Notes: generated by a model not told the origin, from the sequence alone. A DNA stretch of 64,000 nt from a virus (IMGVR_UViG_3300027608_000010); one strand, 5' to 3'; shown: positions 29,417 to 33,867, counted from the first letter of the stretch. Numbers and translations: made by a program.

Positions 29417-30178
29417 ATGATTTTATTAGAAGGTGGAAACATTTGGCCAGACGTTGAGACTAACTTTGACCCGTCTGTTGTCGGAAAACCACTAAGCGAC
29501 ACTACACAAAAATACCTAGAACCTTTGGGAGTCAAACTAGAGGTTATTGGTTCATGCTGGAAGCCTCGTTATGATGCGAACGGTAATGTTGTACCATCAA
29601 ATGATTTAGATGCAATGGTGGAATTATCTACATTAATGCAACAGTTCCAAACAGAAGATTCATCAACTACTCGCAAAACACTGGCAGCTTACTTTGAAAA
29701 GCAAGGAATTTCAACTAGGTTAGCAGGTGTAACTGTGCATGTTAGAATGCCAATGGGAAATAAGTTCTATCAAGCTGATATCAAAGTTGTAAAGAATGCT
29801 CATAAAGTAGCACAGTTTCACAGACACGATATTCCAAAAGGTAGTCCATATAAAGGTGTAAACAAACAACTAGTTATGAATGCACTTGCTAGCACACAAG
29901 GTATGTTATGGAGTCCTGATGAAGCATTATACAAACGTGATGCGGCAGGGAAAAAAGCTGACATGTTAAGTGATGATTGGGATATGATTGCTCAATACTT
30001 ATTAGGTAGAGGTGCAAAAGGTTCTGACTTGGGTAGTGTAGAATCTATCATGGCAAAGATACCTGACAAAAGACGCAAAGAAGAAATTATGAACATGGCA
30101 CGTGCTGGCCATAGTTGGCAACAAGCCACACCTAATGTAACCGAATGGTTTCGTAGAACAATGGAGATGTTAAAATGA
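29417..30178 (+). CDS. putative pol-beta-fold nucleotidyltransferase ('LLEGGN' family)
   Basis: MILLEGGN leader; VIGS...SNDLDAMV (GS, DxD), FYQADIKV third Asp; TAAATA at 29388. Confidence 0.55.
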   Translation: MILLEGGNIWPDVETNFDPSVVGKPLSDTTQKYLEPLGVKLEVIGSCWKPRYDANGNVVPSNDLDAMVELSTLMQQFQTEDSSTTRKTLAAYFEKQGISTRLAGVTVHVRMPMGNKFYQADIKVVKNAHKVAQFHRHDIPKGSPYKGVNKQLVMNALASTQGMLWSPDEALYKRDAAGKKADMLSDDWDMIAQYLLGRGAKGSDLGSVESIMAKIPDKRRKEEIMNMARAGHSWQQATPNVTEWFRRTMEMLK

Positions 30179-31488
30179 GAATAACTGAGATTATAGCTGA
30201 AGCAGCCAATCGTAAGAAACAGGCTGCGATTGCTATTGCTAAGAAAAAGAAGAAAGGTGTGGCGGAAGGCCTAAACGAACAAACATTTACAGGTGAGTAT
30301 GATTCAGAGGACATGCAGGATGCACGTGACCAGGCAGAATTTCAAGCAAAGCATTTACTAGGTCAATCAATTCACGGTGCTAACTGGGATGGTAACGTCT
30401 TCTCCCTGCCCTTAGATGATTACGATGGCCAGCATGAGCGCACCACTTCTGACGGTAAAGGTAAATTTATTGCAAAGTATACATATACAAAAAAAGTTCT
30501 ACCAAAAGTTCAAGAACAGGGTGTGGCGGAAGGCTCATTAAATGAATTTGCGATACCCGGTGGTGGAGATGGTGACTCAGGACGTTGGTATAACGATGAC
30601 GAGCTTGCTGATATCATTGGTGATGATTGGTTTGAGGACTTTGATGTCAGCAACGATGGGTTTAATATTGATGCCTACGGCGAAAAAGCCAAGAAGAATT
30701 TAGTGGGCTATGCAAATACATGGTTTGATGATAAAGGTTATAATGTTAACGTAATGGGTGTAGAACACAATGATGTTGATCATGATTTACAATGGTACAT
30801 TGTTGGTAGTTTCCATAATCCTCGCTTTGCCAACGAAGGTGTGGCGGAGGCTGGCTTTCCAGGTGCTCCAGACGTTGAAATGCCGCCAATGAAGCCAAGT
30901 GGTGATCCACAAAGAGACAAACTTAAACAAGAGTACGTGGACTTGCATCGTGAAATTAAAAGTTTGGTTGATTTACAGTATAATAGCAAATCAACAGAAG
31001 AAAAAATGCAGGCTAAAGCACGAATTAAACAACTCAATGACAGAGCAGACCAAATAAGGGCAATTCTAGAACCTAGACAGCCACCCAACGAATGGCAGAA
31101 AAAAACATATGGGTTTGATGACAACTGGAACAAAGTGAATCAAGGTGTGGCGGAAGACTGGAATAAAGTCAACAAGAAAGACAAGACTTCTGGAATGAGT
31201 CAAAAGGCGGTGAATGCTTATCGTAGAGAAAATCCAGGTAGTAAGTTAAAAACTGCTGTAACAACTAAGCCAAGTAAATTAAAGAAAGGCAGCAAAGCTG
31301 CCAACCGTCGTAAAAGTTTCTGTGCTAGAATGGGCGGTAACAAAGGTCCCATGAAAAAACCTAATGGTAAACCTACTCCCAAAGCATTGGCACTACGTAG
31401 ATGGAATTGCGAGAGTATAGAAGAATTACAAGAATTAGTAATGCTTGCTGAACAATTTGTAAACAAGAAAAAAAATGAGAGTATCTGA
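30175..31488 (+). CDS. cassette polyprotein with four GVAE junctions; C-terminal basic RRKSFCARM...RRWNC module (DUF6321-like)
   Basis: MRITEIIAE leader; GVAEG/GVAEG/GVAEA/GVAED separate compositionally distinct segments. Confidence 0.75.
   Translation: MRITEIIAEAANRKKQAAIAIAKKKKKGVAEGLNEQTFTGEYDSEDMQDARDQAEFQAKHLLGQSIHGANWDGNVFSLPLDDYDGQHERTTSDGKGKFIAKYTYTKKVLPKVQEQGVAEGSLNEFAIPGGGDGDSGRWYNDDELADIIGDDWFEDFDVSNDGFNIDAYGEKAKKNLVGYANTWFDDKGYNVNVMGVEHNDVDHDLQWYIVGSFHNPRFANEGVAEAGFPGAPDVEMPPMKPSGDPQRDKLKQEYVDLHREIKSLVDLQYNSKSTEEKMQAKARIKQLNDRADQIRAILEPRQPPNEWQKKTYGFDDNWNKVNQGVAEDWNKVNKKDKTSGMSQKAVNAYRRENPGSKLKTAVTTKPSKLKKGSKAANRRKSFCARMGGNKGPMKKPNGKPTPKALALRRWNCESIEELQELVMLAEQFVNKKKNESI
30256..31158 (+). 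repeat. four in-frame copies of GGTGTGGCGGA(A/G)G
   Basis: starts 30256, 30520, 30838, 31144; spacings 264, 318, 306 bp. Confidence 0.95.
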
Positions 31489-32650: not shown

Positions 32651-33867
32651 GATACATAGAATTTTACGAATCAACACAAAACACAGCCGTAGTCGGTTGG
32701 GGTCGTGGTATGGGTCACAAAGGGCATATGTTGTTGGCAAGAGCAGTTATCATGCAAGCAGAACAAATGAATGCAACACCATTCTTTTTTGTCTCAGCGA
32801 CAATGGGCAAAGAAGATCCATTAACACCAGAAGAAAAATTATCAATATACAAAAAAGTATTTCCTAAACAAGCAGGTATATTTAATTTTGGACAAACACT
32901 TGGGCAAGTATTGAGTGATGTAGGTAAACAATATAAAAACGTTGTTTTAGTTTTAGGTGAGACCGAAGTACCCTCATTTCAATGGTTATTGAATCCAGAT
33001 AAGTCAGGTGTGTCCCCTTATAAAAATTATGGATTGAACAGTTTAAAAATCATAGCAAGACAACAAGTTAACGATCCAGCACAAAAGATTGAAGGACCAA
33101 GAGCAACACCGATGCGTGAGATTCTATTGAATCCTCAAGCAAGTGAAGAACAAAAATTTGCAATATGGCGTAGAGATATGCCTGATGCATTAAGTGATGA
33201 AGAAGTATTGTCATTGATGAATACTGCACAACAACGATTGAATGTAGCACATGCACCTAAAGTACGTAAGTCACCAGTAAAAGCATTGAAGAAGAAAACA
33301 ATGGCTGAATCAGCAGTAAGTGATTTGGCTGATAAATTACCTTCATTAAAGAAATATGATTACAGCACTATTGATAATCTAATGAAACGTATCAGTGTTC
33401 GTTATAAAATTAGTGGTGATAAATTACATGACATGTTTGTTAGTAAGTATGGTCATACACCTGATACTTGGATAAAGAAAATTAAGAATAGATTAAGTGA
33501 AGGTATTGAATCAAATGAAGATATGCAACAGGTTAATAATTTTGTTGAATGGTGTATTAAAACCCTACATATTAAAAAACCATACCCAGTAATCACTTAC
33601 AGTAAGAATTCAGAAGAAGCACAAGAAGGTCATCATACCGGTCGTCATACCAGTGATGGTAAGATTTGGGTATATGTTGAGAATCGTAATATGGTAGATA
33701 TCTTTAGAACAATCTTCCATGAATTAGTACATCACAGACAGGATCAATTGAATATGATTGGACCCGACGATAGCTATCCAGGTAGCCCTGTTGAAGCAAT
33801 GGCTGATATGCTTGCGGGTAAATACATTAAGATTTACGGCAAAGATCACCCAGAAATCTTTCAATAA
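32647..33867 (+). CDS. HxGH (cytidylyltransferase-like) nucleotidyltransferase fused to a C-terminal HExxH zincin module
   Basis: MRYIEFYE leader; VGWGRGMGHKGH, DPLTPEEK...KVFP, RATPMRE; FHELVHHRQ...EAMADMLAG. Confidence 0.65.
   Translation: MRYIEFYESTQNTAVVGWGRGMGHKGHMLLARAVIMQAEQMNATPFFFVSATMGKEDPLTPEEKLSIYKKVFPKQAGIFNFGQTLGQVLSDVGKQYKNVVLVLGETEVPSFQWLLNPDKSGVSPYKNYGLNSLKIIARQQVNDPAQKIEGPRATPMREILLNPQASEEQKFAIWRRDMPDALSDEEVLSLMNTAQQRLNVAHAPKVRKSPVKALKKKTMAESAVSDLADKLPSLKKYDYSTIDNLMKRISVRYKISGDKLHDMFVSKYGHTPDTWIKKIKNRLSEGIESNEDMQQVNNFVEWCIKTLHIKKPYPVITYSKNSEEAQEGHHTGRHTSDGKIWVYVENRNMVDIFRTIFHELVHHRQDQLNMIGPDDSYPGSPVEAMADMLAGKYIKIYGKDHPEIFQ

Follow-up and report, generated by a model that had tools for sequence, protein, structure and literature searches.

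Organization of the operon

The stretch of viral DNA analysed here, hereafter the window, is 64,000 nt long (IMGVR_UViG_3300027608_000010, one strand). All its genes lie on the + strand, its G+C content is 35-41%, and it is T4-like, carrying a clamp loader, tail fibres, dsbA, a family-B DNA polymerase, gp45 and 7-deazaguanine genes. Positions 29417-33867 hold an operon of four translationally coupled + strand genes, ORF1 to ORF4 (ORF, open reading frame), whose ends overlap by 4, 14 and 4 nt at ORF1/ORF2, ORF2/ORF3 and ORF3/ORF4, respectively. Our subject is the trio of nucleotidyl-transfer enzymes predicted from ORF1, ORF3 and the N-terminal part of ORF4 (ORF4N). An overlapping-gene operon with a series of catalytic motifs had been read from the sequence in a preliminary description; all four genes are indeed present, and every motif cited exists and is conserved. 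A megablast search of the operon region against isolate phages gave no match at the DNA level. The features are listed below, with a slash marking the putative cleavage point after Glu in each leader.

29417..30178, + strand: ORF1, 253 aa; predicted minimal family-X (PolX)-like polymerase, palm and thumb; short N-terminus MILLE/GGN
30175..31488, + strand: ORF2, 437 aa; leader MRITEIIAE/AA and five GVAE-separated modules, the last a basic DUF6321
31475..32650, + strand: ORF3, 391 aa; divergent DUF6267 protein, resembling covalent ligase-type nucleotidyltransferases; leader MRVSDLLLE/AAG
32647..33867, + strand: ORF4, whole gene, 406 aa; two proteins in one frame
32647..33303, + strand: ORF4N, aa 1-219 of ORF4; leader MRYIEFYE/S, predicted HIGH-motif (GHKGH) nucleotidylyltransferase with GPRATPMR, ending in TMAE/SAV
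33304..33867, + strand: C-terminal part of ORF4, aa 220-406; "bracket" protein made of a helical N-module and an HExxH module (HELVH at 33718-33732)
29386..29393, + strand: T4-late-promoter-like GATAAATA, 30 nt before the ORF1 ATG (consensus match only)
33892..33919, + strand: sigma-70-like promoter TTGACT-16-TATAAT, 11/12 match, between ORF4 and dsbA/gp43 (consensus match only)
21419..27054, + strand: upstream pair of genes, both bearing a leader of this type, for a 1367-aa lytic transglycosylase-domain protein and a GP88-family protein

The ATG at 29417 is the true start of ORF1, since nearly all homologues are about 253 aa long and begin M-x-L-x-EGGN. The late promoter claimed for the operon in the preliminary description corresponds to GATAAATA and is retained as a candidate. 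ATAAATA sites occur elsewhere in the window 26-32 nt before the ATGs at 2722, 11002, 18861 and 21419. Because a late-promoter-like site precedes ORF1 and a sigma-70-like promoter follows ORF4, the four genes look like a separate late unit; the latter promoter, judged by its consensus, would mark the end of that unit and begin the dsbA/gp43 unit.

The three enzymes travel together

Gene order was followed in 80 IMG/VR loci in which ORF3 identity ranges from 61 to 97%. ORF4N lies directly downstream of ORF3 in all 73 viral contigs with room for it, and ORF1 lies directly upstream of ORF3 in 65 of 75, while in about seven more a cassette gene intervenes between the two. A single open frame spans ORF3 and ORF4N at 41 of 78 loci, and at 13 of these 78 all three are joined in a single frame, giving proteins of 880-1075 aa. 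Four metagenomic contigs carry ORF1-like, ORF3 and ORF4N-like genes in a row. The coupling of the three enzymes is thus well supported, and the earlier claim of three nucleotidyl-transfer folds in one coupled set is borne out by a near-exceptionless co-occurrence, often within one polypeptide. Separation of these genes in relatives, named in the preliminary description as the observation that would speak against a joint role, is not what we find, as the trio co-occurs almost always.

More distant relatives display the same tendency. Of ten long multidomain proteins that represent the ORF1 family, eight contain DUF6267, the order of the two domains varying; others have NT5C, Amidoligase_2 or the Thoeris inhibitor Tad3. 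Among isolates, DUF6267 occurs in 465 phage records, nearly all from T4-like cyanophages, and it adjoins or is fused with a cytidylyltransferase in S-CAM9, S-PM2, HTVC008M and Melnitz. The PolX-like partner is undetected in marine phages, because the genes that precede DUF6267 in S-CAM9, HTVC008M and Melnitz showed no similarity to the ORF1 profile in hhalign; among 50,697 phage records, tblastn likewise gave no match to ORF1.

One ORF1-family representative of 1002 aa (P0428) combines a DUF5661, a Tad3 Thoeris-inhibitor domain and a C-terminal PolX-like domain. Cargo polyproteins of this type seem, from their domain content, to mix anti-defence and nucleotide enzymes.

ORF1 resembles a minimal family-X polymerase

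ORF1 has 352 homologues, most of about 253 aa, and an exhaustive profile search places 488 clusters at 50% identity in its family, many of them within long multidomain proteins. It carries the pol-beta-type signature (hG[GS], with h a hydrophobic residue, then DxD and a third Asp on the next strand): G45 S46, D63, D65 and D121 are invariant in an alignment of 30 sequences, which also shows a GSxYKGxxKQ block. No sequence match to ORF1 was found in Pfam (E up to 0.1), PHROG, NCBIfam or the Protein Data Bank (PDB).

The AlphaFold2 model of ORF1 (predicted local distance difference test, pLDDT, 90) is considerably more informative. In a Foldseek search of the PDB the top 50 hits are all Pol lambda or Pol beta, with E values from 7e-7 and about 215 aligned columns. 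The first ten rows of VIA, a structure search independent of Foldseek, are likewise all family-X polymerases. Residues 142-335 of Pol beta align with a Z of 11.9 over 174 residues and Pol X of African swine fever virus (ASFV) with a Z of 11.3 over 161 residues (root-mean-square deviation 3.1); Tth PolX, TdT, Pol lambda and Pol mu are also among the top rows, which have Z values of 11-12 over 160-185 residues. Other nucleotidyltransferases, namely TUTases, MenT, CD-NTases, CCA-adding enzymes and poly(A) polymerases, reach a Z of at most 8.6 and match only about 100 residues of the palm.

The alignment with family-X enzymes begins at the palm, the 8-kDa dRP-lyase and fingers subdomains not being present in ORF1. 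These subdomains do not offer a universal criterion, because ASFV Pol X likewise lacks them. As ORF1 superimposes on family-X structures over palm and thumb, and on other nucleotidyltransferases over the palm only, its model is best read as a palm-plus-thumb "minimal PolX" with an architecture like that of ASFV Pol X; by sequence profile it is not a PolX member. The generic label "pol-beta-type nucleotidyltransferase" of the preliminary description was therefore correct as to the invariant GS, DxD and D residues and can be replaced by a PolX-like assignment, whereas its suggestion of a CCA-like enzyme is not sustained, given the Z values of 11-12 over palm and thumb. Identities as a CCA-adding enzyme, a TUTase or a CD-NTase are all less likely, since PolX stands some 3 Z units higher and the thumb is aligned too.

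ORF3 is a divergent DUF6267 protein with ligase-like motifs

Pfam recognizes DUF6267 (PF19782) in ORF3 only over aa 20-68, at 35 bits against a cut-off of 27. The relationship extends much further in a profile-profile alignment with the full-length DUF6267 protein S-CAM9 gp098 (467 bits to DUF6267), where hhalign gives a probability of 96.8 and an E value of 2.5e-10 over 323 columns. We found 459 homologues of ORF3, and no mention of DUF6267 in the literature searched. The putative motif I, K54-W-D56-G57, is invariant in 33 close and 8 distant sequences. When distant members (S-CAM9, HTVC008M, Melnitz and S-CREM2) are compared at 21-25% identity, the residues that remain invariant are H21xED, K54xD56G57, G146, P176N177, E358G359xV361 and K379xxD382. 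From their order and character, these conserved positions appear to correspond to motifs I (K54WDG), III (E145GG, or (E/Q)G146), IIIa (P176 N177), IV (E358GY) and V (K379) of lysine nucleotidyltransferases.

Structure comparison points in the same direction. The Foldseek rows from the PDB are mostly DNA ligase I, ASFV ligase, ligase IV, Trl1, REL1 and Chlorella virus ligase, all at weak E values of 0.25-1.5. VIA ranks REL1 at a Z of 4.7 and Trl1, Rnl2, Chlorella virus ligase, T4 DNA ligase and an Rnl5 enzyme at 4.2-4.6; its rows are weak too, covering Z values of 4.0-4.7 over 150-180 residues with ligases interspersed among helical bundles. A cluster of the AFDB annotated as "RNA ligase domain-containing protein" matches with an E value of 8e-4 and a probability of 0.99. 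Structural support for a ligase-like ORF3 is, on these models, weak but consistent. The model has a helical insert (aa 250-346) between motifs IIIa and IV, and the chain ends 12 residues past motif V. Membership of the capping-enzyme or DNA-ligase clades is less likely, the model having no OB domain. A predicted complex of ORF3 with ORF1 scored 0.00, a value obtained with no controls and uninformative either way.

ORF4 joins a HIGH-motif transferase to a separate module

In ORF4N, G26 and H27 of the GHKGH motif are invariant in 17 sequences that include marine homologues, and the motif aligns to the HxGH motif of RibF, weakly (E 0.3). A second block, GPRATPMR here and GMSASKMR in marine homologues, has invariant G150, A153 and R157 and probably represents the ISxTxxR-type signature of the HIGH-signature family. 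The assignment is strengthened by matches to phrog_3041, "cytidyltransferase" (E 1.6e-17), by tblastn matches to the "cytidyltransferase" proteins of Melnitz and HTVC008M (E 3e-9), and by hhalign with S-CREM2 gp154 (99.6%, E 1.5e-24). ORF4N itself has no match to Pfam PF01467 (CTP_transf_like), but the cut-off of that family, 21 bits, is exceeded by the homologous proteins of S-CAM9 (27.6 bits) and Melnitz (27.4 bits), and the HTVC008M protein passes as well. The label "NMNAT" for this family is an annotation from the cyanophage literature (PMC9602691, PMC10665884). Single-sequence and profile searches of the PDB with ORF1, ORF3, ORF4N and the HExxH module gave no significant match.

The window contains a second, canonical TagD-like cytidylyltransferase (FDLLHAGH) at 44495-44959, in a DNA-modification and sugar region, to which hhalign of the ORF4N profile detected no similarity.

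Beyond TMAE/SAV, ORF4 equals a protein that stands alone in relatives with a leader of its own, for example MRANEFLLE/SAV. Its HExxH module has invariant H87, E88 and H91 and an invariant downstream E112 in 13 sequences, with no match in Pfam or the PDB; a protein-atlas feature search, which is based on a language model and is not structural, pointed weakly to Peptidase_M78 (score 0.93; 14% of the members of the cluster). In this "bracket" family the terminal modules are constant and the middle is swapped, the inserts including sigma70_r4, DUF6321, HD, a DnaJ zinc finger and GVAE-linked pieces. The preliminary description's "HxGH Rossmann nucleotidyltransferase plus zincin" thus keeps its transferase, while the zincin holds at the motif level only and belongs to a separate module.

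Leaders and evidence for packaging

The capsid-targeting sequence of T4 is MKTYQEFIAE; the prohead protease cuts after its Glu, and these ten residues are enough to load foreign proteins (PMC8442874, PMC9026906, PMC3012670). Giant-phage proteases likewise cut after Glu (PMC5694885). A strict leader pattern was used, M-K/R followed by a polar residue and then h-x-E-A/S/G/N. It occurs in 5 of the 73 ORFs of the window, all inside 21419-33867, and these are the 1367-aa lytic-transglycosylase protein, the GP88 protein, ORF2, ORF3 and ORF4. Among homologues it is found in 105 of 116 ORF3 proteins and in 99 of 119 proteins of the ORF4 hit set. ORF1 has the shorter MILLE/GGN. In the model of ORF3 the leader is unstructured (pLDDT below 50 for aa 1-14), and the fold seems able to do without it, since the marine DUF6267 proteins of S-CAM9 and S-CREM2 have none. 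Fused relatives have h-x-E-A at each junction, as in QINE/AADVGRKYQH and AVRE/A...GWGRGMGH.

A 260-kb relative with the same trio encodes a T4-type prohead protease (Peptidase_S77, 97.7 bits), and leader-like N-termini occur in only 13 of its 278 ORFs, including the major capsid protein (MSQVLLE/S) and the scaffold protein (MLDAIKPLLE/SG), both beside the protease. The ORF4N homologue S-CREM2 gp154 has the leader MKNFSSFLTE/A and was detected in virions by three peptides (PMC10665884); NMNAT-like proteins are present in other cyanophage virion proteomes as well (PMC10665884, PMC9602691). Because of the conserved leaders resembling the capsid-targeting sequence, the S77 protease in a relative, the late-promoter-like site and the virion-detected HxGH homologue, packaging is plausible.

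ORF2 and the neighbouring genes

ORF2 has four GVAE sites, each encoded by the identical 11-nt GGTGTGGCGGA, at 30256, 30520, 30838 and 31144. Since the same synonymous codons are used at all four sites in a phage of about 38% G+C, this identity suggests that the sites may serve as DNA-level recombination joints as well as peptide sites. Pfam places the DUF6321 at aa 335-410, and the last module is basic (pI 10.4). ORF2 is not found between ORF1 and ORF3 in most relatives, an insert being present there only in the closest ones. As ORF1 directly abuts ORF3 in most relatives, we regard ORF2 as a passenger outside the enzyme set, in which the preliminary description had included it, and a place for it in an enzymatic pathway is rejected.

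The leader-bearing region begins further upstream. The 1367-aa lytic-transglycosylase protein (21419-25522) has the leader MKISHLQE/N and its own GATAAATA 27 nt upstream, and probably represents an ejection protein, the first member of a larger cluster of cargo genes. It is followed at 25519-27054 by a 511-aa protein with the leader MKIKDILLE/S, whose N-terminal half is long and of low complexity and which includes a Cys-rich GP88 (PF17338) domain. A 340-aa protein at 27563-28585, with no family match, has a weak leader (MHLNE/V) and an HRFGHAIQAGH stretch. Genes for a Dps/ferritin (27072-27557) and a fatty-acid desaturase (28589-29296), both without leaders, stand between leader-bearing genes. 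Ferritin and Fe-SOD genes recur near the trio in relatives; such neighbours would suit an oxidative-damage theme, which is only suggestive.

Proposed function of the enzyme trio

We propose that ORF1, ORF3 and ORF4N form a head-packaged and injected kit for filling and sealing gaps, together with a nucleotide-cofactor enzyme, a proposal to which we give an even chance and in which packaging, cleavage and every substrate are inferred. The three proteins would be expressed late, as one module for the repair of strand breaks in nucleic acid. A T4-type leader of about 5-10 residues ending in hydrophobic-x-Glu would take each into the prohead, where a T4-type prohead protease would cut after the Glu; in the fused relatives the same site between domains would free the individual enzymes. 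Injected with the DNA, the enzymes could act ahead of any phage gene expression. The PolX-like polymerase would fill short gaps, the DUF6267 enzyme would form a nucleotide adduct at Lys54 and seal the remaining nick, and the NMNAT-like transferase would make or regenerate a nucleotide cofactor in the newly infected cell, most simply NAD+ from NMN and ATP.

Gap filling and sealing are proposed because a PolX-like polymerase is paired with a ligase-like enzyme, for which ASFV is the nearest precedent, and delivery by injection because the late timing, the leaders and the virion data point there. Strand-break repair by polymerase and ligase is the role that would best fit the modelled folds. A bolder version, tentative and on balance rather improbable, is that these injected enzymes, often made as one protease-cut polyprotein, mend breaks acquired by the DNA of the free virion before phage expression begins, and that DUF6267 is the long-unrecognised ligase of aquatic T4-like phages without a canonical one.

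Several observations weigh against the proposal. By sequence profile ORF1 could not be tied to the Pfam PolX families: its profile search against the PDB gave no PolX match, and no PolX domain was found in ten distant representatives of its family. The likeness of ORF3 to ligases is weak (Foldseek E of at least 0.25, VIA Z of at most 4.7), and its model lacks a C-terminal OB domain. The role of the NMNAT-like enzyme is the weakest link, and we see no mechanistic reason why it should accompany the other two. These phages fuse many modules that are unrelated, including Tad3, NT5C, sigma70_r4 and HD, so that fusion may reflect shared packaging and not a shared pathway. As to packaging itself, the S-CREM2 authors allow for contamination or carry-over in their virion detection (PMC10665884), and they do not flag the DUF6267 protein of that phage (gp87), whose gene does not adjoin that of gp154, as a virion component. 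No leader is seen on the DUF6267 protein of S-CAM9 or on that of S-CREM2. Finally, the trio lies in a replication-gene neighbourhood, next to gp43 here and next to the gp41 primase-helicase in marine phages, which would fit an intracellular role too.

Alternative explanations

The unflagged gp87, the leaderless marine DUF6267 proteins and the replication-gene neighbourhood all favour the main rival, in which the proteins are not cargo but act inside the cell in replication or repair: nicks in these aquatic T4-like phages would be sealed by DUF6267 as their "missing" ligase, the PolX-like protein would be a gap-filling helper and the NMNAT-like enzyme a supplier of NAD+, the N-terminal motif having another role or none. 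It gains from the finding that a search for ATP- or NAD-dependent DNA ligase domains (PF01068, PF01653) gave none in the complete genomes of S-CAM9, Melnitz, HTVC008M and S-CREM2 or in the 260-kb relative, all five of which have DUF6267, and from the report that quasi-core replication genes, gp30 among them, are missing from some marine cyanophages (PMC2993671). Against it stand the late-promoter-like site before ORF1 and the separate sigma-70-like promoter of dsbA/gp43 just past ORF4, the leaders, which are conserved, rare elsewhere and common to capsid and scaffold proteins, and the detection of an ORF4N homologue in virions. We consider this explanation unlikely, while keeping it as the chief competitor.

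The trio might instead repair RNA, for example against anticodon nucleases, with ORF3 as RNA ligase, ORF1 extending RNA 3' ends and ORF4N contributing nucleotide or end chemistry. An ORF3 without an OB domain is what one would expect of an RNA ligase, and its best named neighbours are RNA ligases (REL1, Trl1 and Rnl2 in VIA, and the AFDB cluster). Yet ORF1 aligns with both thumb and palm of templated DNA polymerases, clearly above the CCA-adding enzymes, TUTases and poly(A) polymerases, and the conserved trio includes no end-healing kinase or phosphatase, which makes RNA repair quite unlikely. A counter-defence set, in which the NMNAT-like enzyme restores NAD+ depleted by Thoeris/SIR2-type defences and the other two make or destroy nucleotide signals, would suit delivery by injection, the NMNAT-like reading of ORF4N in the cyanophage literature and the Tad3 fusion of one ORF1-family representative, but is very unlikely, since neither a PolX fold of palm and thumb nor a KxDG ligase-like enzyme is known to make signals, Tad3 occurs in 1 of 10 proteins against 8 of 10 for DUF6267, and the trio has no Nampt or ADPR-PP synthetase partner.

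Relation to known systems and significance

The closest parallel to the proposed gap-filling and sealing kit is the base-excision-repair set of ASFV (Pol X, DNA ligase and AP endonuclease), which similarly combines a minimal palm-plus-thumb PolX with a viral ligase, and whose ligase appears, with a weak score, near the head of the Foldseek list for ORF3. The ASFV repair enzymes are carried in the virion. Here, by contrast, the host virus is a bacteriophage, the ligase-like DUF6267 protein lacks an OB or DNA-binding domain, and there is no AP endonuclease; an NMNAT-like third partner, T4-type leaders and, in many relatives, fusions are found instead. Bacterial LigD, with polymerase, ligase and phosphoesterase in one chain, also fuses a gap-filling polymerase to a ligase (ATP-dependent in LigD), and its preference for ribonucleotide patches could suit an OB-less, RNA-ligase-like sealer. 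It differs in having a primase-type (AEP) polymerase, a ligase with an OB domain and no HIGH-motif transferase, and in being cellular and unpackaged.

For the route into the cell, the model is provided by the internal proteins and Alt of T4, which share with the proteins described here a leader of about ten residues, of the MKTYQEFIAE type, ending in h-x-E. In T4 that leader is cut by the gp21-family prohead protease, and a diverse, late-made cargo is injected with the DNA (PMC9026906, PMC8442874, PMC3012670). What T4 delivers in this way are small basic proteins, an anti-restriction inhibitor and an ADP-ribosyltransferase, whereas the putative cargo here would be a polymerase, a ligase and an NMNAT-like enzyme. 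In cyanomyoviruses, the "cytitidyltransferase" and T4-GC 71 (DUF6267) form a pair, adjacent or fused, whose two families are homologous to ORF4N and ORF3, and the transferase is present in virion proteomes (PMC10665884, PMC9602691). The marine pair has been annotated only as hypothetical protein and cytidyltransferase, and differs from the operon in that no PolX-like partner was detected and the S-CAM9 and S-CREM2 DUF6267 proteins are leaderless.

These results provide a testable function for two "hypothetical" genes that are very common among T4-like phages of aquatic habitats, those for DUF6267 and the "cytidyltransferase", and add a previously unrecognised family of minimal PolX-like proteins. 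They could also account for DNA sealing in phages that have no canonical ligase. If the enzymes are packaged, the known range of injected phage cargo would widen, and the bolder version, if true, would make this the first DNA repair system known to be carried in a phage virion. Such phages would bring their own repair chemistry into the cell, which bears on how free virions withstand sunlight and oxidative damage in lake and ocean water.

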